Positions 4,407 through 31,968 are shown, counted from the stretch's first letter. The stretch is DNA of 64,000 nt from Candidatus Nomurabacteria bacterium (GCA_023898565.1 CP060228.1:25448-89447), one strand, 5' to 3'. Notes: a model not told the origin generated them from the sequence alone. Program-made: numbers and translations.

Positions 4407-5069
4407 TTGCTCATGTTGCGTCACGCCCGATTATTCAAACTTCTCATTCTGGACATGCTCATTATTGAGTTTGGGCCTCTGCTGGTTTTTTTTGCGCTAT
4501 ACCATTTCCTCTGTAGCTTTGGCAAAGCTGCTCTCGGTCTGGCCGGCACCACCTTAGTTACCCTCTACATTTCAAAACTAGTAAATCAACGCATTCCGTG
4601 GTTTGTAGTCATTTCAGGAGGCATCACTGCCGGCAGTGCAATCTTAAGCTACTGGTTTAAAACGCCCGATATTCTTATATTTACGGACACTGTTTTTTAT
4701 TTCCTATTTGCCGGGCTACTCGCCAGCGGCGTATTTCACAAGCGACAAGTATTTGCGACCTTTTTTGGCCACGTATTTTGCATCAGTGAAGCTGGCTGGA
4801 AGATTCTCGAACGACGTTTTTTAGGGATTTTTATCGCAGCTGGTATTGCCAATGAACTCGTCCGACATCTTGGAAGCGTACACGACTGGGTTGTTTTTAA
4901 ACAGTGGCTCGTTGTTGTTTTCTTACTTTTTGGCTTCTATCAACTGCGCGTTACTAGCTCACACCGTACTGAGGAAGCAGACCGTTTTGGATTACGTAGC
5001 CAAGAGTTCCGCGAACGCATTGTGATTGAAGTAGACGACAAAACACATCCACACTCTAAGTGTGATTAA
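4407..5069 (+). CDS. Intracellular septation protein A family (YciB/IspZ-like) polytopic membrane protein
   Basis: Pattern matches E. coli YciB (FLPLVVFFAFY vs FGPLLVFFALY; ALFAGALL vs FLFAGLLA; conserved C-terminal TM pair). Confidence 0.6.
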   Translation: MLMLRHARLFKLLILDMLIIEFGPLLVFFALYHFLCSFGKAALGLAGTTLVTLYISKLVNQRIPWFVVISGGITAGSAILSYWFKTPDILIFTDTVFYFLFAGLLASGVFHKRQVFATFFGHVFCISEAGWKILERRFLGIFIAAGIANELVRHLGSVHDWVVFKQWLVVVFLLFGFYQLRVTSSHRTEEADRFGLRSQEFRERIVIEVDDKTHPHSKCD

Positions 5070-5097
5070 TATAGCATATATGCTATATTAGCTTCAT

Positions 5098-6597: not shown

Positions 6598-6618
6598 GAG
6601 AAATCTATAACGAGCCAC

Positions 6619-6658
6619 AACGGCGGATTTTTGGCAAGCCTGCCAAAAATCCGCCGTT
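6619..6658 (+). terminator. Long perfect hairpin (18-bp stem) after murA. A TATAAT box at 6662-6667 follows, 11 nt before the priA ATG.
   Basis: aacggcggatttttggca / tgccaaaaatccgccgtt inverted repeat. Confidence 0.5.
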
Positions 6659-6678
6659 TGCTATAATGGCCAGCACGT

Positions 6679-8571: not shown

Positions 8572-8642
8572 CTTGCTTTTACAGCGCAGCGTGCTTAAAT
8601 ACCGCCCAGCAAGTCACTTGTACCATTCTCAAGGAGCCACTA

Positions 8643-9036
8643 ATGTCTACCAGCATTAATGCCAGCATGATAGAAGATGCGATTGCAACTTTTGTCCACC
8701 TGTTTAACAGAGGAGAGTATGAAAAAGCTTCATGGATATACGCCGAAGATGCCGTACTCATCGAAGACGGGTTGCTGAACCGCGGCAGAGCGCAAGTACT
8801 GGGGGGGGGCGGCACAGGAGCAAAACAATTTCATAAAAACGCACGAGGTACGCCTATGCCAAATCAATGAAGCTGGCAATCTTGCACTGGTTTGGTGCGA
8901 TTATGAGATCATTCACCAAACTGGTGACGGACCTTGTGTAACCTACAGTGGATGCTCGACTCTCAATTTTTCAATGACGGAAACAGGTCTCTTGATTATA
9001 GCTGATACCGGGATGATCCACGGTCAAAGCAGCTGA
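8643..9036 (+). pseudogene. NTF2-like (SnoaL/DUF4440-like) protein gene interrupted by a +1 frameshift at a G9 homopolymer (8801-8809)
   Basis: Frame 0 reads MSTSINASMIEDAIATFVHLFNRGEYEKASWIYAEDAVLIEDG...VLGGG. The +1 frame continues AQEQNNF...ALVWCDYEIIHQTGDGPCVTYSGCSTLNFSMTETGLLIIADTGMIHGQSS* to 9036. Deleting one G restores a single ~130-aa ORF. Confidence 0.55.
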
Positions 9037-9098: not shown

Positions 9099-9638
9099 AT
9101 GAATAAGTTAGTCGCCCAAAACCACCCAGCTCTCCATAGTATTGCTGAGGAAATCACTCCCGAAGAATTTGCTGACGGCTCAGTCGCCAAGATTCTCGCT
9201 GGCATGCGCAAAGCTATCAAAACCTACGATGTAGACGGCTACGCAGCTGTTGCAATTGCAGCACCACAAGTCGGTGTCGCCAAGCGGATGTTTTTGGTAG
9301 AAGATCAAAACCAAGACCGTGATGAAGCCTTACCTACCGTCATCGCAATTAACCCGCGGATTGTAAAATACTCTAAGAAAGTCCATGAAGTGGGTGAAGG
9401 TTGTCTCTCCGTACCGAATAAATACGGCGTGGTTGAGCGCCACAAAAATGTCGTACTAGAAGCGCTCGACGAGCATGGTCAGCCATTTTCTCGCGGGGCC
9501 GGCGGCCTCTTGGCACAAATTTTCCAACACGAATGCGATCATCTCGACGGCACACTCTTTATCGACCGCGCTGTAGAGACCTGGCATAAAGACGACCGCC
9601 CAGCTGGTATAACCGAAGCCGAAGATGAACAAAATTAA
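9099..9638 (+). CDS. def: Peptide deformylase
   Basis: Motifs GVAIAAPQ, EGCLSVP, QHECDHLDG. Start chosen at MNKLVAQ. Confidence 0.9.
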   Translation: MNKLVAQNHPALHSIAEEITPEEFADGSVAKILAGMRKAIKTYDVDGYAAVAIAAPQVGVAKRMFLVEDQNQDRDEALPTVIAINPRIVKYSKKVHEVGEGCLSVPNKYGVVERHKNVVLEALDEHGQPFSRGAGGLLAQIFQHECDHLDGTLFIDRAVETWHKDDRPAGITEAEDEQN

Positions 9639-16265: not shown

Positions 16266-16360
16266 TGCTCCGCGTACTGGACGAGTTTCGAACATTAGAC
16301 TGGTTGGGTATTGAAAAAGATTTGCGGTTCGTTGAGTTTGCAAAATGAAAAAGCCGCCCC
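16266..16360 (-). repeat. Repeat copy A of a ~90-nt intergenic element related to the tRNA-Asn 3' end
   Basis: Shares tttgctccgcg...tttcgaac...caaaatgaaaa with copy B. There is an 11-nt identity with the tRNA-Asn 3' end plus its flank. Confidence 0.6.
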
Positions 16361-16795: not shown

Positions 16796-16887
16796 ATGCT
16801 CCGCCTGTTGGATGAGTTTCGAACATTGGACTGGATAAGTATAGAAAAGGATTTGCTGTATTGTGATCTGACAAAATGAAAACCGCC
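16796..16887 (-). repeat. Repeat copy B
   Basis: tgctccgcctgttggatgagtttcgaacattggactgg...caaaatgaaaaccgccc, closely similar to copy A. Confidence 0.6.
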
Positions 16888-16913: not shown

Positions 16914-17417
16914 TCAGAGCAGTGGCGTTTTTGAATATTCACCACCATCTCCGATACGTCCTCGTGAAATTTCTTGAAGCTTGAGTTGATCACCTTCGGA
17001 ATTGACTCCGAAGAATGAAACATCTCCTGGGCCAAGTAGAAGCCGCACGGGTCCACGAACCTTGATTCGTGATACACCTGCCACATCGTGAGCGAGCCAA
17101 CCAATGTGCCATTCCTGGTCAACATGGGTGGGTTGCAGAACGACGTAATCCTTCCATCCTCCAAGAAGAGGGATATGAAAGAATGGCATCTTAAGCCAAA
17201 AGCGTGCTCCAGCAGATTTGTTCCCTTCGCAGAACACTTGCATATCATCCTTCAGGTGTGCAACCTGACCAGATTTCAACTTAGTGTTGTTCCAGCGATG
17301 GGTTTGCTGAGGAGTTTCTCTGAAAGTTCCTGAGATGATGTACATAATGGGAAGCATTAGCACATCAGCAATACGTTCCAACCATCCAAGAGGTTGGACG
17401 TGGATTTTGTTCAACAC
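16914..17417 (-). CDS. Hypothetical protein (GTG start after RBS aggagg)
   Basis: 167-aa ORF with host-like GC content. No family recognised. Confidence 0.45.
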   Translation of the reverse strand: MLNKIHVQPLGWLERIADVLMLPIMYIISGTFRETPQQTHRWNNTKLKSGQVAHLKDDMQVFCEGNKSAGARFWLKMPFFHIPLLGGWKDYVVLQPTHVDQEWHIGWLAHDVAGVSRIKVRGPVRLLLGPGDVSFFGVNSEGDQLKLQEISRGRIGDGGEYSKTPLL

Positions 17418-17451
17418 GACATACCTCCTGAAGGTTGTTTAGACTGGTTGT

Positions 17452-17480
17452 ATAATAAAACAGTATTTATACTGTGTCAA
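17452..17480 (-). promoter_or_regulatory. sigma70-like promoter (TTGACA, 17-nt spacer, TATTAT) for the 16914-17417 gene
   Basis: Minus-sense sequence ttgacacagtataaatactgttttattat. Confidence 0.45.
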
Positions 17481-17484
17481 GTGA

Positions 17485-17555
17485 TGCTCGCCTGGCGGGA
17501 TGCTTTCCGAAGCTATGATTGGCACAATTGCTTTGTTTCTGTTGAAAGTGACATT
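17485..17555 (-). repeat. Repeat copy C (more diverged), at the left boundary of the AT-rich island
   Basis: tgctcgcctggcgggatgctttccgaagc...ttgctttgtttctgttgaaagtgaca aligns with copies A and B. Confidence 0.45.
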
Positions 17556-17758
17556 AGAGAGATCAATAGATTAGTCGCATTGGTCTAGACCGTTTCCCTT
17601 CTCAACAATTTCAACTAAACGCAGTAATTTAGACGCTTTTTCATACGCCACATCTCGCTCTAAAGTTTCACCGTAATGCTTTTGATAGAGCTCAATAAAT
17701 TGATCTAAGTGCTCGTTAGATATTTTTGCCAAAACTATTTGATACAAAAACTCATGCT

Positions 17759-17947
17759 TTACGCATGAATTTTTTCTGCTTTATTTGATATAGTCTCCTG
17801 ATCTTCCTGCGCTCTTTTTAAAGCGCTGTTGTAGACTCGTTTGCGTTCTCGTGACTTCGTTTCAATAAAAAACTTGTACACAGGGTCAGCTGACGTCTCT
17901 GGACGCTTATAGAATAACCCTTTTATAGTTGCGACTAGGTGTGTCAT
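17759..17947 (-). CDS. Small protein (62 aa) translationally coupled downstream of the zeta-toxin-like kinase
   Basis: 4-nt ATGA overlap with the upstream gene. Basic and charged composition. Confidence 0.4.
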   Translation of the reverse strand: MTHLVATIKGLFYKRPETSADPVYKFFIETKSRERKRVYNSALKRAQEDQETISNKAEKIHA

Positions 17948-18648
17948 ATCAAACTCTCAATCTCATCTTTACTGTACTTTTTTGGCAGGTATGTGTCAAG
18001 ATTATCGATGTTGAATGTAATTTTATACTGTTTGGTCTTAAGGTTTCTTTCAATAAGATCAACCCGAACACGATTACCGTACTCCCGCTTAATCGTAGCC
18101 ACATTGTCTCGCGCGGCAATAAATTGCTCAATGAAGTCTTCTCTTTGAATATTTCTACCGTCCACCTTTTCCCTGTCTTGAGTAAACTTCCAAGCAATCT
18201 CTGGAGGCTGAAGTACATACTCAATGAATATAGGTCTATCTTTACTGAGCGATAGATCAATATTGTTTCTGGCTTGATCAATTTTTGAAAAAGTACCATC
18301 TAACAAAAAACTATACGATTTACTCTTTACATAGTCATGTAATTTATTAACCCCAAGCGCAACAGCACCTTGGAACAAATGAGCTTTCCCCGGTTCATAC
18401 TGAGGGAGCCAAAGGCGAATTGCATCTGGATCAATCTGAACAATCTTATCTTCTGCTCCCATAATCTCATTGATCAGCCGAGTCGAGAACTCAGTCTTTC
18501 CTGCACCCGGAGATCCAGCCATGAAAATTGATACTGGTCTTCCAACAGGAGTAACCTTACCCACAAAATGATCAACAAGCTCCTTTTGATGCTTCTTGAC
18601 GTGTTCTATTGCTTCAGCAGAAAGATTGTTCTCCTCTGGGCTAGTCAT
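17944..18648 (-). CDS. Zeta-toxin family P-loop kinase (PezT/zeta-like, AAA_33)
   Basis: Walker A FMAGSPGAGKTEFS in the zeta-toxin G(S/Q)PG(A/S)GKT form, LLDGTF, size about 230 aa. Confidence 0.65.
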   Translation of the reverse strand: MTSPEENNLSAEAIEHVKKHQKELVDHFVGKVTPVGRPVSIFMAGSPGAGKTEFSTRLINEIMGAEDKIVQIDPDAIRLWLPQYEPGKAHLFQGAVALGVNKLHDYVKSKSYSFLLDGTFSKIDQARNNIDLSLSKDRPIFIEYVLQPPEIAWKFTQDREKVDGRNIQREDFIEQFIAARDNVATIKREYGNRVRVDLIERNLKTKQYKITFNIDNLDTYLPKKYSKDEIESLI

Positions 18649-21600
18649 GAGTTCTCAATAGTAGCAATCTCCTCGGGGGTCAGGTCATAGAGCTTGTAAA
18701 CTAACTCGTCAGCTTCATTCAAATACTTTTCTGCCGGAATGTTTTGCGTAGTTGCTTTAACTATCTCTTCATAACACACTTTTAGCTTATCAATGCTCAC
18801 GGGATCATGATCTAAACTTGGTAATGGCATATCTCTCAAGTGTCTTGGGTAAAAATGCAATCCATTTGACAACAGTTCACTGAAAAACCAGCTAAGTAAT
18901 TTTGAGTTCAGAATTACAGTTACCGCTTTCATATCATACTTTTGTGACAACTTGATCCGTTCCTGACTTAATTTTCCTTTGACTTGGGAGTAGGTTAAGT
19001 GTTCTAACAAGTGATATGGCACAGCATTAATAAGAGCGTCGTTATTGTAATAACCAACATCGTCATACACCGCTTGGATACCAGTCCTTCCAACAACGTT
19101 TTTCACAACGATCTTGTGACTTTCAAACAACTCCGGGAAACAGGGGGCTTTATGTTTGCTTGGTTGATAGTCTAGATACAGCTTTTTCTTTACCACATAC
19201 CTCTCGAAGTTCTTCCCCTCCAAGTACTGCTTATATCCGTCTGCATAAACATCGTGTATAAAGTCACCCTTACCAATTTTGAGTTTTGTGTTATGTATCT
19301 CTGCCCCCTTTGATACATAAAATGCATTTTCAAACTTGATCGTTGATTTAATGATCTTTTGGATTATCTGGACCTTGCCGTCATCTAAATCAAGTTTGAA
19401 ATTGTAATCTGGATGTATTTTAAAAACCTCCTTGCTAACAGTACTGAATGGTAACGAGTATAGATTGGGTAATTTTTTCGTCTTGTGGACATACGCTTCA
19501 AACTCACCTCCTCCTTCAGCATCATCGTCAGCATTAGATATAATACTTATCTGTGTGTCCACTGTAGCAGAGTCAAACACTTGATGGGCTGAGAAGTCTA
19601 GTAATCTTAATATTCTCTTTCCAAGCAAAAGTGCCCTTAATTGCTTACCGTACGATTGCGCAAGCCACTTGTTACTTGTTATATACGATATGATGCCATT
19701 TACTGCCAAAAGGCCAAAAGCTCGCTCATAGAAAAGAACGTATAGGTCATAATGACCTTTCGCTGTAGTGTATATATTTTGATATTTATCTTTCTGTTCT
19801 GGCTTTATTTTCCAAATACTAACGTATGGTGGGTTCCCTATAACTACATCAAACTTAGCTTCCACATCATGCATAAGCAACTGGTCATAGAAGCTGGCAG
19901 GATGCTCATTACTGAACGGATCATAAGTATGAAGCTGGTCGTTAAGCTGTGAGCCAAACATAGTCCCTTGTTTACGAAGAGTTGAGTATTTTGTCTCAAG
20001 CTTTTCACGTTGCTTAGGAGTTGCCTTAAAATACTCTTTCTTGATCTCTAACAAGGTCTCATATTTACCACCATCATCCAAAGCCGCTTCTTCACTCAGA
20101 GGTAAAAGTGTATTGGCACAGACGAATTTAAACTCTAGGTTTGGCAAGGTGTCCACACCACCATTTGGTTTCTTTTCAACATACTCTTGATCAACCACAA
20201 GAGCAAGAAAACTTCGAAGTCGAGCGATCTCAATAGCAAGTGGCTCGATGTCTACTCCGTAAATGTTACGCTCCATAATACCAAGCTTGGTCCGATACGG
20301 ATCAAAACGAGCATCGAGTCGTTCGTATATCTGGACCAGAAGATGCAGCATACCAATTGGAAAAGCCCCAGACCCACAAGCAGGATCAAGCACTTTCATA
20401 CCATCCAGCGCCTTTACAATCTTCTCTCGCAGCACAGGCTCTACCACGTCCCGCTTACTGTTTGTTCCTGACTTTGCCCAATCACTATCAGGAGTATCAA
20501 GCAATCTATCTATAGAGTTTTTAGCCTTATCTCCAGCCTCTAGTGCAGTACACAAGTATGCCCTGACACTCTCTCGACACATATAAGCCACAATCTCTCT
20601 TGGTGTATAGAAGGCACCTTTCGCTTTTCGAGCCTGCTCTCCTGTTTCTTCATTAATCTCAGCTAACAAGTTTTCAAAGATACGTCCGAGCATTTCAGGA
20701 TCAATCGCAATTTGCTCATAGTCAGGAGTTGACTCATCTGTTGTGAAATTAAACTCGCTGAAATGTTCATAGAGATTAACAAAAAAACCCTTTGGGAAAG
20801 GAATGTCACTTCCCCTCCAATCATCTGGGCGATCTTCAAAGAGTCCTCCGTTTAAGTACGGTGTCTTAAGGTCAGGATGCGGACGCTCACGATCATTCTG
20901 TGGAGTATTTAAAACACCAAAGAAGAGCAGCTCGAGTTTTTCCTTATAGTACGAACTGGCATCCGTGTGTGTAGTATCAAAATAATTGACGTCTCTCGAG
21001 ATAAAACCTTTTTTGTCTAGAAACCAACAAAAGAGCAAACGACCGTGTAGACGATTAGCAAAATGGCGAGCTTCGTCAGAACTTTTACCACCCTCCTCTA
21101 GATGAGAGACCAGATGTTTAAAACTGTTGGCAATACCCTTATAAAAAGCTTCGTTAATGCTTTTTAGCTTGAAACTATCCCAAATAGTTAGATGGAGGGC
21201 TTCACGACCCAAATTGGCTACTCCTTCCCATTTGGAGAAGATGTCTTTTTGCGTATTTGAGAGCTGATCTTTCAGTTCAACAATACGAAGAGACTTATTG
21301 TTAGACAATACTATCAGCAACGCATCATTTTCTGGAGTTAAGAAAAAGTCCACTCCTATCTTCGAAGCAGGGTCCTGTCTTGTAAATAAGGCGTCTTCAT
21401 AGTTTGGCGTAAAATGCACCGCGCCAGACACGTAGAGCTTTGACTTCTTCTTAAGTGCATACAACTTTGCTTCGAGAGGACCTTCTTTTGTGTCATTAAG
21501 GGCAAAGCATGCACGATTACTCTTGAACTTAGGATGAGCCTGAAACCAATGATCATAACGCTCGGCATTGGGCAATTTAAGTGCTGTAAGTAGTACATAA

Positions 21601-21749
21601 TCACTACTTGAGGGGTCATCTGTCTTAACTCCATTCACGTCAGCCAACATCAATACCTCACGAGCGACTCCCAATCCAGCCTCTATGGTTCTTTCGCTAC
21701 TTAATTTACTTAGCGCAGCATCAATTTTTTCAAAAGTATTATTTTGCAT
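18645..21749 (-). CDS. gamma-class N6-adenine DNA methyltransferase of Type IIG / MmeI- or PglX-like architecture (1034 aa)
   Basis: Motif X GAFYTPREIV, motif I VLDPACGSGAFPIGML, YGVDIEPLAIEIARL, motif IV VIGNPPYVSIWK. Includes an N-terminal ~350-aa region with a possible D...ExK nuclease-like segment (VDFFL...IVELK) and a C-terminal ~400-aa TRD-like region. Confidence 0.8.
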   Translation of the reverse strand: MQNNTFEKIDAALSKLSSERTIEAGLGVAREVLMLADVNGVKTDDPSSSDYVLLTALKLPNAERYDHWFQAHPKFKSNRACFALNDTKEGPLEAKLYALKKKSKLYVSGAVHFTPNYEDALFTRQDPASKIGVDFFLTPENDALLIVLSNNKSLRIVELKDQLSNTQKDIFSKWEGVANLGREALHLTIWDSFKLKSINEAFYKGIANSFKHLVSHLEEGGKSSDEARHFANRLHGRLLFCWFLDKKGFISRDVNYFDTTHTDASSYYKEKLELLFFGVLNTPQNDRERPHPDLKTPYLNGGLFEDRPDDWRGSDIPFPKGFFVNLYEHFSEFNFTTDESTPDYEQIAIDPEMLGRIFENLLAEINEETGEQARKAKGAFYTPREIVAYMCRESVRAYLCTALEAGDKAKNSIDRLLDTPDSDWAKSGTNSKRDVVEPVLREKIVKALDGMKVLDPACGSGAFPIGMLHLLVQIYERLDARFDPYRTKLGIMERNIYGVDIEPLAIEIARLRSFLALVVDQEYVEKKPNGGVDTLPNLEFKFVCANTLLPLSEEAALDDGGKYETLLEIKKEYFKATPKQREKLETKYSTLRKQGTMFGSQLNDQLHTYDPFSNEHPASFYDQLLMHDVEAKFDVVIGNPPYVSIWKIKPEQKDKYQNIYTTAKGHYDLYVLFYERAFGLLAVNGIISYITSNKWLAQSYGKQLRALLLGKRILRLLDFSAHQVFDSATVDTQISIISNADDDAEGGGEFEAYVHKTKKLPNLYSLPFSTVSKEVFKIHPDYNFKLDLDDGKVQIIQKIIKSTIKFENAFYVSKGAEIHNTKLKIGKGDFIHDVYADGYKQYLEGKNFERYVVKKKLYLDYQPSKHKAPCFPELFESHKIVVKNVVGRTGIQAVYDDVGYYNNDALINAVPYHLLEHLTYSQVKGKLSQERIKLSQKYDMKAVTVILNSKLLSWFFSELLSNGLHFYPRHLRDMPLPSLDHDPVSIDKLKVCYEEIVKATTQNIPAEKYLNEADELVYKLYDLTPEEIATIENS

Positions 21750-24700
21750 AAAATAATAATGCTTCAGAAGACTCTACCGTTAGGTCTTCAGGTGTATGAG
21801 CAGCAGATGACTGTTCTTCATACGCCTCCTTCAAAGCGTTAATTGTTTGAGGCAGCAGCTGACCACTTTCCTTAATGTCTCGATTTGCAGCTGTAAACAA
21901 CTTATTCCATTTTGTCTTAGATTGGATCGTCATAATGTTCTGAACAACTGACTGGAACTGCAAACCAGGCAAAACACGAGCCAGCTCATCAAGCACCTTA
22001 ACTTGGGATGGTTTGAGCTTACCTGGGGTTGATACTGAAACAGCTTCATTTGAAGCCTGTGCTTCTACCAGCCGACGTACAGCTCCCCTGTCTGCAGTAA
22101 TAGTATCTATCTGACGGCTGTTTTCTTCACTAGTTGTACGCAGATATGTAAGGGCCTCTAGCGTCTCAACCGGATCTGACACGTCACCATCTGATGCCAC
22201 AAAAATGTTTGCACGCAGCTCGTCAGTACCATTTTGCGTGTATACTTCGGTAAGAGAAAGTACTGTCGGGCAATCATGATCATTTCGTGCATGGCTAGGA
22301 AAATAACCCCATTTACCTCGAGGTATACGTTCCATTTGTCGGAAGGCTTCTTCTGTTGCGTTTTTACTAAACGCCCTCAAGTCATTTACATACTCATCTT
22401 CAGACAAAAAGTCATCATCATCCTCCAAAGTTTCAGCATACTCAGTGGCTTTTTCAGAGTATAAGTTCTCGACGTACTCAATTGGGTTTTCTTTCTCCCC
22501 CAAGACGGACTGGTCAGTTCCTATGGAACGACGAATACGTTCGACTTTTCCTTCAAGACGTTTTACTAGTTTCAAATAAGCTTCTAGCTGTGCGGCAGGA
22601 TTTAGATTGTAGATCCAAACCTTTTCATGCGGAGAACCCAAACGATTAATACGGCCGTTACGCTGGATCATGCGGACCGGGTTCCAGTGGAGATCAAAGT
22701 TTATGATAATACCAGAGTCCTGCAAGTTTTGACCCTCAGAAAGTACATCTGTAGCAAATAGGTATTGCAACTCATCCTCCGGGGAGACTTCCGCTTTCTT
22801 TGCTCTAGGCGCAAACCTCTTAGTAAGATCTTCAATTTCTTTTATGTTAGCTCCTGAGATAAATGCCGCCTTCTTAGCAAAGTCCTCACCTAGAATAGTT
22901 GGCAATTTGTCCTGAAGATACGCAATCGTGTCTGCATAAAAACTAAAAACAAGCACCTTACCACCATTTAATTTTTCTTCCCGTAAACCATTTATCAAAG
23001 AAACAAATGCCTGGAGTTTATCGTCTTGTTCCTCAAGTAGTTTACAAACAGAGATGAGGGCTTCGATTATCTTTCGATCGCGATTAAGGTCTGTGCGGAT
23101 TGCTGGGATATTGAATACATTATCGTCTGCTTCAACATGATCAGTATCCAGCTCTACTGCTGCATCGGCCTCAACATCATCACCCTGATCCTTCACAATG
23201 TCATAAATTTGCTTGAAGGTAAGAATGTACCCCTTGGTGAGCCACTCTTCGAAGAGATCAATCTTACCGATGTATGCCTCTAGCGAACGACGTAATGCAT
23301 ACGGAGAAGACTCTAACCTCTTTAGGAGACTCACCCGCAGCATATTGTGGATACTAAGTGCACTCATTAACTTAAAACTCTCTCGCTCATTGAGGTCGTA
23401 TGACTTCACCACCTCAATGTCTTTAGCATAAAACTGATGCTTGTATGTCTCTGATCGATACGGAGTGAAGCCAAGAGTAAGAAGAGAGCGGAAGAGTGAC
23501 ACAAATGTGTCAGGAACTCCTTCTCCCTCTACTATTAGTGATTGGTCTCCTTTCACAATATCTAATGGATGCTGTGTTCTTTGGGTCACTTCCAGAAAAC
23601 GGTCGTGGTCAAGATTGGTCACCGACACTCCCTCGAAATGTTCTACACACTTTTGCAGAGTCTCATATACCACCCGATCTCGCTCACCACCATACTCGTA
23701 AGGAGAGGGTACAACCTCACTCTTAGGGAATGTTCGAAGCACACCATCGTTTCCTAACAGACCACCGAACTCTTTTTCAATACCCGCTCTAGTTGAACGC
23801 ACCAAAAACTGCCTCAACCCCTGTCTCATCACTCGATGTATCCGGTCCCAATCAGGCTCTTGGCTGTCTTTTTCTGACTTTTTTATCTCAGTTGAAAGTC
23901 GACTAACAGCATCGTAGAAGTCGATCACTTCATTTTTCTTGGTCGTTTTAAATACAACAGGAAATGAAGTCAGTTTCCCTTTTGCTGCAAGCTGGACCTG
24001 GTTAACAAAGTCTTCAAGCTGGTTATTAATTGGCGTAGCCGTCAACAGAAGCACCTTGCTGTCTGGATTGGCAGCCAGCCACTCTAGTATCTGCTGATGC
24101 CGTTTACTGGCGTTATTTCGAAGGTTGTGCGCTTCATCAATCACAAAGAGGTCTACAGGCGCATACTTATCAATCACACGAGCTTTCTCGATCGCATCGG
24201 GATTTTGCATCGATATCAACTCGTAACCGTTCACTAACCCATGATGATCAGCCAACTCTTCCCTCCACTGCGACTCCAGTCTCTTGGGAACGATTACATT
24301 GATACGCCGAAAACCTTGCTCGACATAATGCTTAATCACTGCCCCACCGGTGATAGTTTTACCAAGACCTACTGAGTCTGAAAGCATGGCCAAACCATGC
24401 TTTTCTAGCTTATTTATTAGTAATTGAGCATTTCGCTGTTGAAACGCATAGAGCACTTTTTCTACGTCGGCCGAGAGTTCAACATTATCAGCAATTTCTT
24501 CCGAATATAAAGTCAGTAGGGTTTTAATGTACATCTCGTATGGGCTGGGTGTGAGATCCCCAACCGGAGAAGTGCGGACCAGCTCAATAAATGCACCAGT
24601 CCAATCTTCTGTTTTTTCATCTGACCACATCTCATCAAACCATGATAAATGACCTGTTTCCTGCTCAGGACTATTAGGCTTATATGTGACTACACGGTAA

Positions 24701-25188
24701 TCAGTCTCAAGTGCGTTCAGTTCTGCGTTGTCTGTGAGGCCATTTCTCGTGAAGTTTGATGAGCCAATTATCCCCACCGCTTCTGGCGACTCATATGTAC
24801 CAAAGATATAGCATTTAGCATGCAAAAAACTCTTTCGATAGACACGAACTTGAACCTTCCCTTCATCAATCAAACTCTTCAGATGAAACACCACCTCTCG
24901 TAACTCTGGAGTTGGATCAATGCGTTGTAGATCCTGGAAAAAGTCCTCATCAGGATAATCAAGCTCAGGTTCCTCAATATCCTTTTTATTATCGCGCTTG
25001 AGTAACGGTTCTCTCCCTATGAGAATACGCACCTGTTTATAGTCTTTCAGAGCATCTATCACTAGTTTCATCCCCTCAATATCCCAATAACCAGTCGCAA
25101 TGGAAAGATGATCGTGCTGCTTACTTGCTTCAAGAAAAGCATCTAGCATTACGCGACGATTGTTATCAATGATATTTGGGAGTGACAT
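21739..25188 (-). CDS. Fusion protein: N-terminal single-HKD phospholipase-D-family nuclease domain plus SNF2/SF2 helicase (1149 aa)
   Basis: HKD motif SFLHAKCYIFG...IIGSSNFTRNG. SNF2 ATPase motifs DSVGLGKTITGG, LFVIDEAHNLRN, LLLTATPINNQLEDF. C-terminal helicase domain LFATDVLSEGQNLQD, HWNPVRMIQRNGRINRLGS. Confidence 0.8.
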   Translation of the reverse strand: MSLPNIIDNNRRVMLDAFLEASKQHDHLSIATGYWDIEGMKLVIDALKDYKQVRILIGREPLLKRDNKKDIEEPELDYPDEDFFQDLQRIDPTPELREVVFHLKSLIDEGKVQVRVYRKSFLHAKCYIFGTYESPEAVGIIGSSNFTRNGLTDNAELNALETDYRVVTYKPNSPEQETGHLSWFDEMWSDEKTEDWTGAFIELVRTSPVGDLTPSPYEMYIKTLLTLYSEEIADNVELSADVEKVLYAFQQRNAQLLINKLEKHGLAMLSDSVGLGKTITGGAVIKHYVEQGFRRINVIVPKRLESQWREELADHHGLVNGYELISMQNPDAIEKARVIDKYAPVDLFVIDEAHNLRNNASKRHQQILEWLAANPDSKVLLLTATPINNQLEDFVNQVQLAAKGKLTSFPVVFKTTKKNEVIDFYDAVSRLSTEIKKSEKDSQEPDWDRIHRVMRQGLRQFLVRSTRAGIEKEFGGLLGNDGVLRTFPKSEVVPSPYEYGGERDRVVYETLQKCVEHFEGVSVTNLDHDRFLEVTQRTQHPLDIVKGDQSLIVEGEGVPDTFVSLFRSLLTLGFTPYRSETYKHQFYAKDIEVVKSYDLNERESFKLMSALSIHNMLRVSLLKRLESSPYALRRSLEAYIGKIDLFEEWLTKGYILTFKQIYDIVKDQGDDVEADAAVELDTDHVEADDNVFNIPAIRTDLNRDRKIIEALISVCKLLEEQDDKLQAFVSLINGLREEKLNGGKVLVFSFYADTIAYLQDKLPTILGEDFAKKAAFISGANIKEIEDLTKRFAPRAKKAEVSPEDELQYLFATDVLSEGQNLQDSGIIINFDLHWNPVRMIQRNGRINRLGSPHEKVWIYNLNPAAQLEAYLKLVKRLEGKVERIRRSIGTDQSVLGEKENPIEYVENLYSEKATEYAETLEDDDDFLSEDEYVNDLRAFSKNATEEAFRQMERIPRGKWGYFPSHARNDHDCPTVLSLTEVYTQNGTDELRANIFVASDGDVSDPVETLEALTYLRTTSEENSRQIDTITADRGAVRRLVEAQASNEAVSVSTPGKLKPSQVKVLDELARVLPGLQFQSVVQNIMTIQSKTKWNKLFTAANRDIKESGQLLPQTINALKEAYEEQSSAAHTPEDLTVESSEALLFYAK

Positions 25189-25219
25189 AGCTAAAAGAGT
25201 ACCATTTTAAGGGGTGTTT

Positions 25220-25633
25220 TCAAATTAAAATGTCACGGGTTATCTCGACCAACTGGTTTGGATTGGACCTGAGATCAACTTCTATAAACTGCTGGTCTAA
25301 CTCCACGCTATCAAAACGGGCACGTTCTTCAGGAAAGATTTCATTATCAAACCAAATGAGGTCATAGTCCCAATCTATCCCTTCGGTTTTGTTTACATCC
25401 CAGACTGTGCCTTTAATGTCGTCAATAAGCCGGTGTATGTCAGGCGAAGTAACTCGCTTTACTATCTCCTGCGCTCTTGTCGGATCACCTTCTCTACAGT
25501 GAGTTGTAAGCCAATAAAGCTCATGTGTTTGTAAGGCCAAAATAAAGTCTTCAAGACCAGCTGCTGGTTTACCGTAATTTTCTGTTAAGTCCTCATGTAT
25601 AAGAGTACCGTCGATATCTAAGTAAACCTTCAT
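25220..25633 (-). CDS. Small HAD-superfamily-like hydrolase (137 aa)
   Basis: N-terminal LDIDGTL (DxDGT motif I). Abuts the FtsK-like gene. Confidence 0.4.
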   Translation of the reverse strand: MKVYLDIDGTLIHEDLTENYGKPAAGLEDFILALQTHELYWLTTHCREGDPTRAQEIVKRVTSPDIHRLIDDIKGTVWDVNKTEGIDWDYDLIWFDNEIFPEERARFDSVELDQQFIEVDLRSNPNQLVEITRDILI

Positions 25634-25634
25634 G

Positions 25635-27068
25635 TTATTCAGGGTCCACTAATACATTCCGTGGCTTCGATCCATCCTGTGGACCTATCACCCCACTATC
25701 CTCTAGAAGATCCAGCAATCGAGCCGCTCGGGAGTACCCAATACGTAAACTACGTTGTATATACGACGTAGAAGCTTTACCTGCCTTAATCACTGCCGCT
25801 TTAGCATCTTCATACAGATCATCTTCTTCTCCATCTCCACCCACCATGGCGTTGAATATCGCATCATTTCCGTTGTAATGATCGAAGTCTAAGGTGTCCA
25901 GTTCCCCTTCATCATACTTCTTCCAAACTTTGACCCGGTCGATGATCTCATCCTCTGAAATATAGAGTCCCTGAATGCGTTGTGGTCTGAAGTCTTCGGG
26001 AGATTGTAAGAGCATATCCCCCTCGCCTCGCAACTTCTCTGCTCCACCGACATCTAGAATGGTTCGTGAGTCCACCTGACAAGCCACCATCATAGCGATA
26101 CGAGCTGGGATATTGGCCTTAATAGATCCTGTAATAACACTGGTGGATGGTCGCTGGGTGGTCAAAATAAGGTGAATACCGACTGCTCTACTCATTTGTG
26201 CTAAGCGGACCACACAAGCTTCAAACTCGGCAGGATATGTCTGCATAATGTCATTGAGCTCGTCTACAATGATCAGAATAAATGGGAGGGCTTCAGGCAG
26301 CTCAGCACGATCCGCTTCCTTAGCTCCTGCTTTTTCCCAGCTTTCTTTAGCAGGCTGGTACACATCCTTGTGGTAGACAGAAATGTTCATTACTCCTTCT
26401 GCTTCCAGAATGTCATATCGCCGCTCCATCTCCTTTACCGCCCAGGAAAGCGCCTGGACAGCCTTCTTGGCCTGTGTAACAGGCTTAGTGAGCGAGTGTG
26501 GCAATCCATCATATAAAGTAAGCTCAACCAGCTTAGGATCAATGAACATAAAACGGACCTGCTCGGGTGTGTTCTTCTCAATCAGTGCGTTAATGAGTGA
26601 GTGAAGCAAGACAGACTTACCCGAACCAGTGGTCCCGGCAGCCAGGATGTGTGGCATCCGGGCAATGTTCATTAAGTGTCGATTACCAAACTCATCAATA
26701 CCGAGTGGCACCACTAGAGGGCCACTTTCTCTGAACTCTTCCCACTTGAGTGCATCGCTAAAGGGTATGGCTGGTAAGTCTTCCTTCTTAGGTACCGTTA
26801 TACCAACCAGCTTCTTGTTAGGGACCGGAGCCTGGATCTCTACGCCGTCATTACTTAGTTCATACCTGAGGTCCTCCACAAAGCTAGCGAAGGCTTTCAT
26901 CCGCATCGGCTTCTTTGGTTGAAGGTAGAAATGGTAACTACTAAACCCATCAACCGCCTCCACCACCTCAACTGGCACCTTAAACTCCTTAAACATGCTC
27001 ACAATGGTCTCTGCCATCTTCTTAACCACTTCCCTACTCTGAGCAAGGGGGGTATGCTTTTTTAACAT
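25635..27068 (-). CDS. FtsK/SpoIIIE-family DNA translocase lacking an N-terminal membrane anchor (TraB/Tra-like)
   Basis: Walker A LAAGTTGSGKSVLLHSL, Walker B ILIIVDELNDIM, C-terminal gamma winged-helix domain YEDAKAAVIKAGKASTSYIQRSLRIGYSRAARLLDLLEDSGVIGPQDGSKPRNVL. Confidence 0.8.
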   Translation of the reverse strand: MLKKHTPLAQSREVVKKMAETIVSMFKEFKVPVEVVEAVDGFSSYHFYLQPKKPMRMKAFASFVEDLRYELSNDGVEIQAPVPNKKLVGITVPKKEDLPAIPFSDALKWEEFRESGPLVVPLGIDEFGNRHLMNIARMPHILAAGTTGSGKSVLLHSLINALIEKNTPEQVRFMFIDPKLVELTLYDGLPHSLTKPVTQAKKAVQALSWAVKEMERRYDILEAEGVMNISVYHKDVYQPAKESWEKAGAKEADRAELPEALPFILIIVDELNDIMQTYPAEFEACVVRLAQMSRAVGIHLILTTQRPSTSVITGSIKANIPARIAMMVACQVDSRTILDVGGAEKLRGEGDMLLQSPEDFRPQRIQGLYISEDEIIDRVKVWKKYDEGELDTLDFDHYNGNDAIFNAMVGGDGEEDDLYEDAKAAVIKAGKASTSYIQRSLRIGYSRAARLLDLLEDSGVIGPQDGSKPRNVLVDPE

Positions 27069-27267
27069 ACCTTAACTTTACACCCAAAAGGTCCCTCACG
27101 CACAAAACTTATCCCCTACCAGTCAAACACCTAAAATAGGTTGATAAATAAGCCCAGAATGCTTAAATTAGCACATTTACATTTTTGCCCCTTGTCGTGG
27201 TACTAGACTTTATGCAAGCTGCTTGTACAGACACAACTTACTCACATTTATGTTGTAATTTAAAACA

Positions 27268-27807
27268 CTATTGATAGTGCATATCACCGTCTTCATCGTA
27301 CTCAAAAACACCATTTTCACAAAAAGGACAGGTGTCTCCACTCTCACAAAAGTCCTTATTGCCGCAATGTATGCACGACTCATCTGCTTTATATACAAAT
27401 TTCGGGACCAGATCATCCTTCTTGAACTCATCAGTAAGCAACACCTTGCGATGTTTGAAAAAGTAGTGATGTTGCTCCTCTGGACCAAGTATCCCCCTTT
27501 TTTCTAGATACGGTACAGCGTCATACCAAATGCCGACATCTTCAAGATCCTGCTCGCACACATACTCATAAGCCTTTAAGGCTTGGACCTGCTCCCACAG
27601 CTCGTCAAAGTCTGTTCTGAAGCGATACGTCTTTACATCTGTCTTGCAGTGCTTACAGATCTTTTCGGTAGAGAAAACGCCATCAAAAGGAGCTCTCCTC
27701 TCAAGAGATGCTAACTCCCCCTTCTCATTAAGCGCAATCGGGATGCCTGTCCCGGACCTTAGACAGTGCCCACAATTGTTGCAATAGCTGAATGATATGT
27801 ATCCCAT
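27268..27807 (-). CDS. Cysteine-rich hypothetical protein (multiple CxxC pairs)
   Basis: CNNCGHC...CKHC...CIHCGNKDFC...CPFC. Confidence 0.45.
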   Translation of the reverse strand: MGYISFSYCNNCGHCLRSGTGIPIALNEKGELASLERRAPFDGVFSTEKICKHCKTDVKTYRFRTDFDELWEQVQALKAYEYVCEQDLEDVGIWYDAVPYLEKRGILGPEEQHHYFFKHRKVLLTDEFKKDDLVPKFVYKADESCIHCGNKDFCESGDTCPFCENGVFEYDEDGDMHYQ

Positions 27808-27811
27808 ATCT

Positions 27812-28216
27812 TTACTTTTCTAGACGTAGTTTGAACTCTTCTTTTACCCGACCAGCTATCTCTGACTCCCACCCTTCAGCATTAGATAAAAAATACGCAA
27901 CAATTGACCTTGCGGAGTCAGACCCGTAGCTGTCAGCCATAGTCTCTATCTCCATCATCGCCGTCACATACGGGTAGGCACTTCGAGACACACTATCACC
28001 CCAATCCTCCATAATAATGTCCGCCAGTTGACTCAACGTTAGTTCTGAAAGATCTTGATTGTCGTACCAGTGCTCTGCTTTCCCATCAAAGAAATGTTGG
28101 CACGAGTCACACATCCACTGTTTCTGGACCTCATTGGATATATCCATGAGATCACACATGTCTTCTACACTCGTTGCCTCATTTCCACCACATTTGGGAC
28201 AGATCACTTTTGTCAT
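27812..28216 (-). CDS. Zinc-ribbon hypothetical protein
   Basis: MTKVICPKCGG...CDSC. Confidence 0.45.
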   Translation of the reverse strand: MTKVICPKCGGNEATSVEDMCDLMDISNEVQKQWMCDSCQHFFDGKAEHWYDNQDLSELTLSQLADIIMEDWGDSVSRSAYPYVTAMMEIETMADSYGSDSARSIVAYFLSNAEGWESEIAGRVKEEFKLRLEK

Positions 28217-28226
28217 ATCAAACCTC

Positions 28227-28619
28227 TTAAGTCCCAGAGACAGCGTCAAAGAAACTAATAACTAAACCAATCAACGCCCAAACCCCAATAAATATGAACA
28301 GGTATTTAAAAACTTTACTCTGAGTTCTAGGCTCATCAGATCCATTACCATCAACACTATTGCCTCCGTTTTTTGATTGTCTCTTTGGACCAATGTCTGG
28401 ATTATTACGCTTGATAGCTTCGACAATATCAATCGCAAAAAAGAAGCGTTGTAATAGGAGGGTTCCTATAACATATCCGAGCACCCCTAAAGGAAATATC
28501 TTACCGATAATAAAAATAGTGATCAACGCTACTACAGATGCCTGGAAGTTTCTATGCCGTTTTACCTCTTTGCCTATCTGCTCCTGGGTCTTAACCGGCT
28601 TTTCTTGCTGGTCTTTCAT
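28227..28619 (-). CDS. Small membrane protein, hypothetical
   Basis: Two TM segments with a Gly/Asn-rich loop. Confidence 0.4.
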   Translation of the reverse strand: MKDQQEKPVKTQEQIGKEVKRHRNFQASVVALITIFIIGKIFPLGVLGYVIGTLLLQRFFFAIDIVEAIKRNNPDIGPKRQSKNGGNSVDGNGSDEPRTQSKVFKYLFIFIGVWALIGLVISFFDAVSGT

Positions 28620-28836
28620 ATTAAAAAGTGACTAGTTTACTCTGGCAGCAGGCACAACAAAGCCCGCTACTAAGGAAAGCTCCTTACGGAAACTTCTACC
28701 AGCGTTTCCACTGGTAACGATAGACACGCCCTTAATAACGGGTTCTCTTGTGTCTATCGTTTTTCGACCATGCCGCTATCTCACGACTGCGGGTTAGGTC
28801 ATTGAAATATTTAGTTGTTCGAGTATTGTATCAGAA

Positions 28837-29583
28837 GTGACAAAAAACATCGAAACAGACAAAGTAAAAATAATAAAGGAGGCTGCAGAACTTCATCTGA
28901 ACCCCATTTTACGTGACAAAACATATCTTCTTCTAAAGACACTAAGCAGGGTCAGCAACCCAAGACTTTCACACCACAAAAAAGAGGTATCTGTTACAGA
29001 ACTCACTCATACGGAACTTTCAGAAGAGGACTTAGACAAAATTTTGCAGTTTATTGAAGACTGTTTAACACGAATAAGAACATTGGCCGACATTGGTTGG
29101 TCTGGAAAAAGTGTAATGGAAAGGCCATCATTTGGACCTAAATTTAAAGGACCGTATATCCAAGGCTCAAAAGTCGTACTCAATACTTTTTTCGATTATC
29201 ACCCCTTTATCTCTGCACTGTCTAACAGCACTGAAGAGGACGGCGCAAACAAACTAGCATCGACGCCCACAAACACACTTGTAGCAAGTAGAAGTCTTAA
29301 AGGTATTTACTTCAAGAATGAACCGGGGCTTATTGTGAAATACAAAATGCGCAGACTTAATCTGATCCTTCACTTATTCAAATACGGAGAAACAAAAACA
29401 TCTGATCTTACAAATGATTTGACGCCCGATGGAAGCGATAATGATTATGATGTTGAAGACGCTGTGAGACACATCAACAATAGGTTCATAGAAGAACTCA
29501 AATTGGAAGATAAATTGATTATCGGTGAGTGGGGTTCAGGGTACCGCATCAACGAAAAGTACAATACTGAAATTGCCGACTAA
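28837..29583 (+). CDS. Hypothetical protein (possible DNA-binding or replication/regulatory protein of the element)
   Basis: 248-aa AT-rich ORF. Tandem 11-bp repeats lie just downstream. Confidence 0.4.
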   Translation: MTKNIETDKVKIIKEAAELHLNPILRDKTYLLLKTLSRVSNPRLSHHKKEVSVTELTHTELSEEDLDKILQFIEDCLTRIRTLADIGWSGKSVMERPSFGPKFKGPYIQGSKVVLNTFFDYHPFISALSNSTEEDGANKLASTPTNTLVASRSLKGIYFKNEPGLIVKYKMRRLNLILHLFKYGETKTSDLTNDLTPDGSDNDYDVEDAVRHINNRFIEELKLEDKLIIGEWGSGYRINEKYNTEIAD

Positions 29584-30351: not shown

Positions 30352-31935
30352 ATGGAAAAAGCAGTAATCTACGCACGAGTATCATCAAAAGAACAAGAAG
30401 AAACTGGCTACTCCTTACCAGCCCAGCTGGACCTACTTCGTAAATACGCTGAGAAAAATGGTTTTAAGGTCTGCAAAGAGTTTTCTATTGCTGAGTCTGC
30501 GACGAGTCAAAGCGGTCGTAAGACCTTCCAAGCAATGCTTGCGTACACCAACCAGAAGAAAATACACACGATCATTTGTGAAAAGATCGACCGACTCACT
30601 AGGACCCCTAAAGATGCAGGTGTAATTGACGACTGGGTGCGCTCAACTGAAACCCGGACCGTCCACTTTGCCAAAGAAGGCTTCATTCTCAGTAAGCAAA
30701 CCAAAGCGCACGAGAACCTCGTTTGGAACATGAAAGTAGCTATCGCTAAGTTCTACACCGACAATCTATCTGAGGAGGTTCGTAAAGGTCAGGCTGCCAA
30801 GATTGCTGCCGGCCACCTCCCCACCAAACCACCGCTTGGATACCGAACCGTCGGGGAGCAAGGTAAGAAGGTGCACGTTATTGACGACAACACAGCCCCG
30901 CTGGTTAAGAAAATGTTTGAGATGTATGCCACCGGGAACTTCTCTGTCGTCGAACTAACAAAACGAATTAATCTGATAGGTCTCCGTAATCGAAACGGGA
31001 ACAAGCTGAGCAAGACACGAGTTCATGACTTTCTCTCAGACCCATTCTATTACGGAGACATGCGTTGGAACGACAAGATATTCAAAGGAGCTCATGAACC
31101 ACTGATCACTCTGGAGCTCTTCAACAAGGTTCAGGAGAAGCTAGGTCGAGGTACTGCTAGCCCATACTACCGAACTCATCCACTGCTATACAAAGCGAAG
31201 GTCACTTGTGCCACTTGCGGCTTCTTGGTGAGTTGGGAAAGACAGAAAGGACACGTCTATGGCTCTTGTAAGCATTGTAAGAGCCCTCTAGGAGCATCAT
31301 CCAAGTACTTACGAGAAGAAGAGTTAGACAAGAAGATCATCGAGAAAGTGCTAAAAGTAGCACCTAAGAACCAAAAGGTGCTCGACATCCTCAACCAAGC
31401 GTTAAAAGAGGACGCTGAGGAGGAAATACATGCTTACGAAACCAGTAAACGCCAGCTGGAAGAAAACCTACGCCGTGGCGACCTAAGAGTCGACACAGCT
31501 TACACGGACCGCTTAGATGGACGTATCGGCACAGAACGATATGACGGTATTAAAGCTGAATGGGATGCAGAAAGAAAAGCGATCTTGAACGAACTGACTC
31601 GTCTTAGCAACGATAAGTCAAAGTATTACGACGCTGGTTTCTCAATCCATGTCTTGGCTACAAAAACCCGAGAGATCTACGAGAGTCAACACGTTACAGA
31701 CGATGATCGTCGCCTGCTGTTAAGTTACGCCTTCAACAAAGTCACACTAGAAAGAGGCAACATCGAAGTTGAGTACACTCCAGCGTTCGAATATCTGCAA
31801 AAATGGGTACCTGCAGTAAACCAGAGTTTCGAACTTGCAAATAGTGGCTCTAATGAAAGACAAAAGGTGCCTTTCGGCACCTCTCATCCTACTTTGCTCC
31901 GCGGGCAGGATTCGAACCTGCGACCAATCGGTTAA
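30352..31935 (+). CDS. Large serine recombinase (resolvase/invertase N-terminal catalytic domain plus recombinase and zinc-ribbon domains). The 3' end overlaps tRNA-Asn.
   Basis: AVIYARVSSKEQ catalytic Ser motif. Central recombinase domain. CATCG...CKHC zinc ribbon. Coiled-coil tail. Confidence 0.85.
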   Translation: MEKAVIYARVSSKEQEETGYSLPAQLDLLRKYAEKNGFKVCKEFSIAESATSQSGRKTFQAMLAYTNQKKIHTIICEKIDRLTRTPKDAGVIDDWVRSTETRTVHFAKEGFILSKQTKAHENLVWNMKVAIAKFYTDNLSEEVRKGQAAKIAAGHLPTKPPLGYRTVGEQGKKVHVIDDNTAPLVKKMFEMYATGNFSVVELTKRINLIGLRNRNGNKLSKTRVHDFLSDPFYYGDMRWNDKIFKGAHEPLITLELFNKVQEKLGRGTASPYYRTHPLLYKAKVTCATCGFLVSWERQKGHVYGSCKHCKSPLGASSKYLREEELDKKIIEKVLKVAPKNQKVLDILNQALKEDAEEEIHAYETSKRQLEENLRRGDLRVDTAYTDRLDGRIGTERYDGIKAEWDAERKAILNELTRLSNDKSKYYDAGFSIHVLATKTREIYESQHVTDDDRRLLLSYAFNKVTLERGNIEVEYTPAFEYLQKWVPAVNQSFELANSGSNERQKVPFGTSHPTLLRGQDSNLRPIG

Positions 31936-31968
31936 CAGCCGACTGCTCTACCGCTGAGCTACCGCGGA
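31897..31968 (-). tRNA. tRNA-Asn (anticodon GTT)
   Basis: Minus-sense TCCGCGG TA GCTC AGCGGTA GAGC A GTCGG CTGTTAA CCGAT TGGTC GCAGG TTCGAAT CCTGC CCGCGGA G cloverleaf. CCA is not encoded. Confidence 0.85.

Follow-up and report, generated by a model that had tools for sequence, protein, structure and literature searches.

The gene pair considered here, a fusion of a phospholipase D (PLD)-type HKD nuclease to a Swi2/Snf2 ATPase and an MmeI-like N6-adenine (N6A) methyltransferase, lies in a 64,000-nucleotide (nt) window of Candidatus Nomurabacteria, a lineage of the candidate phyla radiation (CPR; Patescibacteria); the window is the whole stretch of DNA that was analysed, and its numbering is used throughout. 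Several described systems come close to this pair. MmeI itself acts alone and independently of ATP. In MANTIS (Gao_RL/Gao_29), a Type-2, DUF499-centred BREX-related system with the components MtsA-D, an N6A methyltransferase serves site recognition and hemimethylation, and the effector is a dimeric protein with PLD and SF2 parts that is related to SauUSI; this design has been validated (bioRxiv 10.64898/2026.09.23.753747; PMC12839542). The MANTIS methyltransferase needs the DUF499 AAA+ loader MtsA and the small co-regulator MtsB for DNA binding (bioRxiv 10.64898/2026.09.23.753747), and HKD-Swi2/Snf2 effectors are found in Type-2 BREX-related (BR) systems (PMC12839542). The DnmA(YeeA)-YeeB-YeeC cluster links an MmeI-like methyltransferase that lacks a nuclease motif to a helicase and a nuclease encoded by genes of their own (PMC9973331), and the Hma system, with the helicase HmaA, the methylase HmaB and the ATPase HmaC, provides defence (PMC11232893).

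Four minus-strand open reading frames (ORFs) of the window overlap one another, and their coordinates and overlaps agree with an initial annotation of this DNA:

21739-25188, minus strand: gene 1, 1149 amino acids (aa), ATG start; PLD(HKD)-nuclease/Swi2-Snf2 ATPase fusion, predicted restriction (motor-nuclease) subunit of the pair
18645-21749, minus strand: gene 2, 1034 aa, ATG start; MmeI-like gamma-class N6-adenine methyltransferase with its own target-recognition domain, predicted modification/specificity subunit
17944-18648, minus strand: gene 3, 234 aa, ATG start; zeta/PezT-type P-loop kinase, first gene of a two-gene cassette
17759-17947, minus strand: gene 4, 62 aa, ATG start; conserved basic protein, candidate antitoxin or regulator

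The overlap is 11 nt between genes 1 and 2 (junction sequence ATGCAAAATAA) and 4 nt at each of the gene 2/3 and gene 3/4 junctions (ATGA in both cases).

The association of genes 1 and 2 was followed through 122 related loci, of which 80 came from species-representative genomes and 38 from metagenomes, the other 4 being contigs of close homologues; a search with the PLD-SNF2 protein returned 2939 proteins at E <= 1e-10, and one with the methyltransferase N-terminal domain returned 385 clusters at 50% identity (E <= 1e-10). Where the PLD-SNF2 homologue was at least 35% identical, a methyltransferase gene lay directly downstream in every scorable locus (38/38). Among homologues below 30% identity whose PLD region was covered, the methyltransferase was present in 31 of 39 loci (21 downstream, 10 upstream), and among SNF2-only relatives a methyltransferase homologue was found in 1 of 23. 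The reverse search, in which the methyltransferase N-terminal alignment was run against viral contigs, returned 11 loci, each of which has a PLD-SNF2 gene on the strand of the methyltransferase. The two genes overlapped by 11-20 nt or lay no more than 5 nt apart in each of the 32 loci in which both ends could be placed; the junction is therefore conserved and not a product of chance, and the two proteins are made in a coupled fashion from overlapping or abutting frames.

The pair is taxonomically broad, occurring in CPR lineages, Omnitrophota, Bacteroidota, Neisseriaceae, Nitrospirota, Chloroflexota, Planctomycetota and one Asgard archaeon, among others. Full-length homologues (37-39% identity, 100% coverage) are carried by a 15.4-kb plasmid of Lactococcus cremoris and an 11.8-kb plasmid of Lactiplantibacillus plantarum (BC015 plas2, NZ_CP113421.1, with the pair at 1641-8787), the second of which has essentially no other cargo; carriage on such small plasmids argues that the pair is self-sufficient. 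The gene that follows the methyltransferase differs from locus to locus and may encode an SMC/AAA_15 ATPase, a PLD protein, a SWIM protein, a transposase or a protein of no recognized type, or there may be no same-strand gene at all. Our preferred reading, to which we assign a probability of about 0.6, is that the obligate pair of genes 1 and 2 works as a minimal ATP-dependent restriction-modification-like system without an AAA+ loader. The pair itself is best read as a widespread, unnamed variant of motor-driven, methylation-based restriction, as predicted from its genes.

In relatives from Curvibacter (locus L031, 17139-18818) and Neisseriaceae (locus L003, 10446-12668), an SMC/AAA_15-type ATPase gene overlaps or abuts the methyltransferase gene, and some branches of the family may thus be three-component systems.

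The two proteins of the pair

The domains of the two proteins, from the N-terminus to the C-terminus of each, are as follows:

24700-25116, minus strand: PLD/HKD nuclease domain of gene 1, aa 25-163 (Pfam PLDc_2)
22489-24456, minus strand: Swi2/Snf2 helicase-like motor of gene 1, aa ~245-900
21225-21572, minus strand: N-terminal alpha/beta domain of gene 2, aa ~60-175, restriction-endonuclease-like, with D142...E158-L-K160
20757-21206, minus strand: helical spacer of gene 2, aa ~182-331, MmeI-like
19500-20714, minus strand: methyltransferase catalytic core of gene 2, aa ~346-750, with FYTP, DPACGSG and NPPY
18645-19499, minus strand: hypervariable target-recognition domain of gene 2, aa ~751-1034, TaqI_C-like (Pfam TaqI_C at aa 841-975)

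Pfam and motif searches recovered the domain calls of the initial annotation for genes 1, 2 and 3 together with the motifs that it had quoted; only the C-terminal extension of gene 2, put there at about 400 aa, proved shorter, as about 285 aa follow the methyltransferase core. Gene 1 matches PLDc_2 (1.6e-10), RE_NgoFVII, SNF2-rel_dom (1.5e-16) and Helicase_C (3e-13), and its best PADLOC match is the accessory-gene model 'HKD+Snf2' (1.8e-49), followed by DrmD, with PLD_Helicase at 1.6e-23. The helicase part, with the motor motifs GLGKT, DEAH, TATP and QRNGRINR, is a true Swi2/Snf2 fold. A regex search found a single complete HxK...GSSN motif in the chain, at aa 123-145 (nt 24754-24822). With one HKD motif per chain, dimerization would be needed to build one active site, and by analogy with BfiI, SauUSI and MtsD (bioRxiv 10.64898/2026.09.23.753747) gene 1 is expected to dimerize into such a site.

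Gene 2 matches Eco57I (7e-38), N6_Mtase, MmeI_Mtase, MmeI_hel and TaqI_C in Pfam, and carries FYTP at 380, DPACGSG at 455 and NPPY at 639. Its closest solved relatives by sequence are PglX/BrxX, BseCI, TaqI and MmeI, and, as in the MmeI family, the helical spacer, the gamma-class N6A methyltransferase and the C-terminal specificity domain share a single chain. An AlphaFold2 model of residues 1-345 reached a pLDDT of 86, and a 20-sequence alignment profile of the same residues (A3) matched MmeI residues 190-264 at E = 4e-4. Across 119 homologues, K95, N116, E118, D119, D134, R155 and E158 of the N-terminal domain show essentially no variation; D142 is retained in 45% of them and K160 in 14%, and the full D...ExK triad is present in 13, the window copy being one of these. 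This MmeI-type domain may still cut DNA, or it may be vestigial and serve as a structural part, an interface or a coupling domain. The catalytic residues of the PLD, helicase and methyltransferase domains are invariant across about 50-120 homologues.

Residues 1-740 of gene 2 are well conserved, but the last ~290 residues are divergent. Even with 73-77% identity over aa 1-740, homologues have in the C-terminal domain only about 100 residues of weak similarity in common, and in only 11 of 114 homologues is this domain 40% or more identical over 200 aa or more; conversely, some homologues that are 52% identical in the first part of the protein share 45-48% identity over the whole C-terminus. The similarity of the C-terminal domain is therefore decoupled from that of the rest of the protein, which identifies it as an exchangeable target-recognition domain, shuffled among close relatives.

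On the plasmid of L. cremoris JM1 (NZ_CP016750.2; locus L131, 5425-10230), the specificity domain is bracketed by an oppositely oriented silent TaqI_C ORF, an Mpi-family invertase and an inverted repeat of 321 nt, whose arms at 7794-8114 and 9259-9579 are 71% complementary. Such an arrangement fits a phase-variable specificity shufflon in a culturable host. A search of the Nomurabacteria window for a shufflon of this kind revealed no inverted repeats between 15500 and 22000.

Likeness to and difference from described systems

Searches for the components of known systems with PADLOC and Pfam covered the proteins of the low-GC island in which the four genes lie (its serine recombinase by Pfam alone) and the other large ORFs of the window. 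Class 1 DISARM shares with this locus a Swi2/Snf2 helicase (DrmD), a PLD nuclease (DrmC) and an N6A methyltransferase (DrmMI), and DrmD is among the best profile matches of gene 1; in DISARM, however, DrmC is a separate protein, whereas here the PLD domain is fused to the motor. The match of gene 1 to NCBIfam DISARM_DrmD (157.8 bits) falls far below the cutoff of 610, that of gene 2 to PADLOC DrmMI (1.1e-15) covers short stretches only, and the lone 'DrmA' match reflects the generic helicase similarity of gene 1. With the DrmA/DrmB core not found, class 1 DISARM was rejected. BREX of types 1-6 was rejected likewise, as BrxC and PglZ were not found either, and gene 2 scores 94 bits against BREX-1 PglX, for which the cutoff is 500. 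A match to NCBIfam DpdE also stayed below its cutoff (119 bits against 500).

The resemblance to MANTIS is one of design. In both, an N-terminal single-HKD nuclease is fused to an SF2 ATPase, and the pair is predicted to share with MANTIS a specificity set by an N6A methyltransferase, a methylation-based discrimination of self from non-self and an ATP-dependent restriction. The number of genes differs, with two here and four in MANTIS, and gene 2 is an MmeI/Eco57I-type protein that has a restriction endonuclease (REase)-like N-terminus and a TaqI_C domain of its own. Membership in MANTIS was rejected, as neither DUF499 (MtsA) nor DUF3780/DUF3870 (MtsB) was found by Pfam or PADLOC in the island and window proteins, and gene 1 reaches 144 bits against NF042964 phospholipD_antiphage (MtsD), well short of the cutoff of 1100. 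In the related loci, too, the two-gene core is joined by variable extra genes only.

The DnmA cluster is similar in that the restriction function is outsourced to neighbouring genes, as is predicted here, and in that it lies on horizontally acquired DNA by toxin-antitoxin pairs (PMC9973331). There, the YeeB helicase and the T5orf172/GIY-YIG-type YeeC are separate and downstream, whereas here the PLD domain is fused to the motor and encoded upstream; given this arrangement, and with T5orf172/GIY-YIG not found, membership in DnmA-YeeB-YeeC was rejected. Type ISP enzymes (LlaGI/LlaBIII) unite nuclease, helicase, methyltransferase and specificity domain in one polypeptide with an Mrr-type nuclease; they were rejected because two genes share these functions here and the nuclease is of the PLD type. 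SauUSI differs in having no methyltransferase and in targeting modified DNA.

These comparisons uphold what the initial annotation had said of the missing DrmA/DrmB core and BrxC/PglZ, of the split between helicase/nuclease and methyltransferase that sets the locus apart from Type ISP, and of the lack of a curated model that fits end to end, since PADLOC offered none and the NCBIfam equivalog scores lie far below their cutoffs. Its claim of an uncharacterized system holds in part: the pair is unnamed, but it is less unprecedented than was supposed, given the MANTIS/Gao_RL design, DnmA-YeeB-YeeC and the appearance of the exact PLD-SNF2/methyltransferase pairing in a table of PMC9881135. That table entry was all that a literature search for the two-gene pair as a named or tested defence system found.

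Predicted mode of action and alternatives

In the mechanism that we propose, gene 2 would read a short DNA motif through its swappable C-terminal domain and methylate an adenine there as the mark of self; one strand would probably be methylated, a pattern shared with MmeI, PglX and MtsC. Where the motif is unmethylated, gene 2 would recruit or license its PLD-SNF2 partner, and the dimer of the latter would track along DNA with ATP and cut foreign DNA at one shared HKD site, as judged from SauUSI and MANTIS MtsD. If this is true, the pair would be the simplest known methylation-guided motor-nuclease defence, with two proteins and no AAA+ loader. Comparison of the pair with MANTIS could then show what the AAA+ loader contributes and whether a vestigial MmeI nuclease domain became a coupling domain. 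The model can be tested directly, since the hosts of the Lactococcus and Lactiplantibacillus plasmids can be grown in culture, have industrial relevance and are organisms in which resistance to phages is of importance. The pair may also have been undercounted: gene 2 matches the PADLOC Type IIG model (REase_MTase_IIG, PDLC03601) at E = 8e-164, so automated tools would report a lone Type IIG enzyme beside an orphan helicase, and the abundance of the pair would be underestimated in defence censuses.

Several points weigh against this proposal. MtsA and MtsB are absent here, so the analogy with MANTIS may fail at the very step of recognition. The invariant acidic residues of the gene 2 family, together with the full D...ExK triad of the window copy, mean that gene 2 might cut DNA itself, and the role of the PLD-SNF2 protein would then be open. 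It is the coupling of the genes, and that alone, which suggests a physical complex of the two proteins. DnmA-YeeB-YeeC of Bacillus subtilis shows no restriction, phage defence or transformation phenotype (PMC9973331). Finally, the ATGA overlap of the methyltransferase and kinase genes amounts to co-expression in the window genome and leaves room for a local functional link.

The alternative that survives best is that gene 2 is an autonomous Type IIL/IIG enzyme, similar to MmeI or Cj0031, which cuts with its own PD-(D/E)xK site, the PLD-SNF2 protein being an auxiliary or backup effector, not the primary nuclease, that might clear or process DNA after the first cut or counter anti-restriction. 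The domain order of gene 2 (REase-like domain, helical spacer, gamma methyltransferase, TaqI_C) is that of MmeI, and the Type IIG model match, the D142/E158/K160 set of the window copy and the family-wide invariance of E118, D119, D134 and E158 are all compatible with this account; furthermore, auxiliary and backup nucleases are frequent beside methylation-based systems (PMC12839542). However, the canonical nuclease triad has been mostly lost in the gene 2 family, the lysine and the first aspartate being retained at the low frequencies given above. In addition, autonomous enzymes of the MmeI type need no partner, whereas the gene 2 homologues are always accompanied by a PLD-SNF2 gene in close-relative (38/38) and viral (11/11) loci, and a coupled partner of such constancy is the signature of an essential subunit. 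We therefore consider an autonomous gene 2 unlikely.

Less probable still is a role for the pair outside defence, either as an epigenetic or DNA-remodelling module of mobile elements or as a decayed relic whose methyltransferase survives as an orphan regulator, as has been proposed for DnmA of B. subtilis. The absence of phage and transformation phenotypes in that cluster (PMC9973331) and the fact that the pair rides integrative elements, plasmids and viral contigs speak for such a role. Yet the invariance of the nuclease, motor and methyltransferase motifs argues against decay, and the rampant exchange of specificity domains and the shufflon point to an arms race over DNA specificity. Moreover, the analogous systems MANTIS (bioRxiv 10.64898/2026.09.23.753747), Hma (PMC11232893) and the DnmA-YeeB(-YeeC) cluster of Vibrio crassostreae, which is protective (PMC9973331), do defend.

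The kinase cassette and the island

Gene 3 matches Pfam Zeta_toxin at 7.4e-32, with the motif GSPGAGKT at 45, and in alignment with PezT it retains Walker A (GxxGxGKT), ID-x-D-x-x-R and (D/E)GT, so that it resembles the toxins of epsilon/zeta and PezAT systems. It differs from these in that no upstream epsilon/PezA antitoxin was found and in that its partner is a basic protein of about 60 aa encoded downstream with a 4-nt overlap; its score against NCBIfam PezT is 17.9, with a cutoff of 470. The 62-aa ORF itself has no Pfam match.

Homologues of the kinase are numerous in CPR bacteria, and five distinct contexts other than the window were examined (L123, L126, L127, L129 and L130): near Mrr and a T5orf172-ResIII-Eco57I fusion, by Wzy genes, in the gap from nusG to rplK, in the gap from a Type I hsdR to rplU, and before hisS and mreB. 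In all five, an ORF of 59-78 aa overlaps the kinase stop by 4 nt (ATGA), and these small ORFs are homologous to that of the window (pairwise E 1e-5 to 1e-22), which establishes the 62-aa ORF as a real gene. Replacement of an upstream antitoxin by the methyltransferase was rejected, as the ORFs upstream of the kinase in the other contexts are mutually unrelated and thus include no conserved upstream partner. No tblastn match to either the kinase or the 62-aa ORF was found in any of the 122 PLD-SNF2 loci. This lack of co-occurrence, together with the joint recurrence of the two genes in unrelated CPR contexts, identifies them as an autonomous, mobile cassette. Its most likely role is that of a toxin-antitoxin or addiction module whose partner, in departure from the canonical order, lies downstream. 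The partner recurrence considered in the initial annotation thus applies to the methyltransferase and not to the kinase; the claim that the four genes are one functional unit is not supported, and the kinase, described there as an embedded operon member, travels elsewhere with the small ORF as a cassette of its own. Here, this cassette would have landed directly behind the PLD-SNF2/methyltransferase pair, where it would be co-transcribed with the pair and dispensable for it. On the L. plantarum plasmid, it is a RelE/ParE pair that follows the same PLD-SNF2/methyltransferase genes, so that a toxin-antitoxin cassette beside the pair is not peculiar to the window. More generally, the kinase and its ~60-aa companion may represent an undescribed toxin-antitoxin arrangement common in CPR bacteria, or else a housekeeping kinase pair.

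PrrC, an anticodon nuclease that is guarded by the EcoprrI restriction enzyme, offers a comparison for a different view, in which all four genes constitute one defence system and the kinase is an abortive-infection arm, silenced by the restriction proteins or by the 62-aa protein and released when a phage inhibits restriction. The ATGA overlaps that join the methyltransferase, the kinase and the 62-aa ORF would accord with this, as would the position of three of the six kinase cassettes by restriction genes (in the window, after Type I HsdR in L129, and ~4 kb from the T5orf172-ResIII-Eco57I fusion and Mrr in L123/L124). Nevertheless, with the kinase and small ORF in none of the 122 loci, unrelated genes in the slot behind the methyltransferase elsewhere, the cassette also standing among housekeeping genes (nusG/rplK, Wzy, hisS/mreB), and toxin-antitoxin cassettes commonly riding mobile islands, as the RelE/ParE genes of the L. 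plantarum plasmid illustrate, such a four-gene system is very improbable. The same must be said of a fuller form of this view, a layered immune unit of a CPR bacterium in which the co-translated kinase, a putative cell-wall-precursor kinase, and its 62-aa partner would be a latent suicide arm, guarded by the pair and set free once a phage blocks the complex of methyltransferase and PLD-SNF2 protein.

The surroundings of the four genes contain the following features:

25220-25633, minus strand: orf137, 137 aa, begins MKVYLDIDGTL (HAD-phosphatase-like DxDxT motif)
25635-27068, minus strand: FtsK-like soluble translocase, 477 aa, with alpha, motor and gamma domains and without the membrane part
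28676-28800, minus strand: LOOT RNA (RF03000), Rfam 69.9 bits against a gathering score of 46.4
30352-31935, plus strand: large serine recombinase/integrase, Pfam Resolvase and Recombinase, PHROG integrase 3e-75
31896-31968, minus strand: tRNA-Asn (ARAGORN and Rfam), overlaps the integrase gene, island end
~16266-16351 and 16797-16882: tRNA-3'-like fragments, 86-nt direct repeats, 78% identical, with a third partial copy at 17439-17463

The GC content between ~16 and 31 kb is 0.39-0.44, compared with 0.47-0.52 in the flanks, which delimits a low-GC island of ~15 kb. The low GC, the serine integrase and the tRNA-Asn bear out the AT-rich integrated element of the initial annotation, and the locus is best read as an integrative element of ~15 kb that carries two independent modules in a CPR bacterium. 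A search for clean att repeats turned up diverged tRNA-3'-like fragments alone, so the left boundary of the island is approximate. A megablast of 17000-29000 against plasmid and phage collections gave no matches. Only 31 nt separate the end of orf137 from gene 1, and 1 nt separates the end of the FtsK-like gene from orf137; as this tight spacing extends upstream through both genes, the 'four-gene operon' is an arbitrary cut of a longer co-directional cluster.

The copies at 16266-16351, 16797-16882 and 17439-17463 resemble the T-arm and acceptor 3' end of a tRNA (...GTTCGAAAC...GCGGAGCA). They may be old attachment-site remnants of serial integrations at tRNA-Asn, or copies of a repeated small element. 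The second and third copies have a sigma-70-like promoter match nearby; the promoter and terminator scans of the locus performed no better than on shuffled sequence and were not used.

A 62%-identical copy of the FtsK-like translocase lies upstream of the pair in locus L082, which points to a conserved family of integrative elements in CPR bacteria, equipped with a DNA pump of the FtsK type. The protein encoded by orf137 has no match in Pfam, PHROG or NCBIfam. Its homologues stand next to the pair in L081 (54% identity) and, with weak similarity, in L082, lie downstream of the pair in L104 and L106, and occur in L073 by a distant PLD-SNF2 relative without a methyltransferase match; orf137 may serve the mobile element or the pair in an accessory role. 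The LOOT RNA stands where the island's leftward gene cluster begins, between the divergent ORFs at 28227-28619 (minus strand) and 28837-29583 (plus strand), and may be a regulatory or element-specific RNA of such integrative elements.

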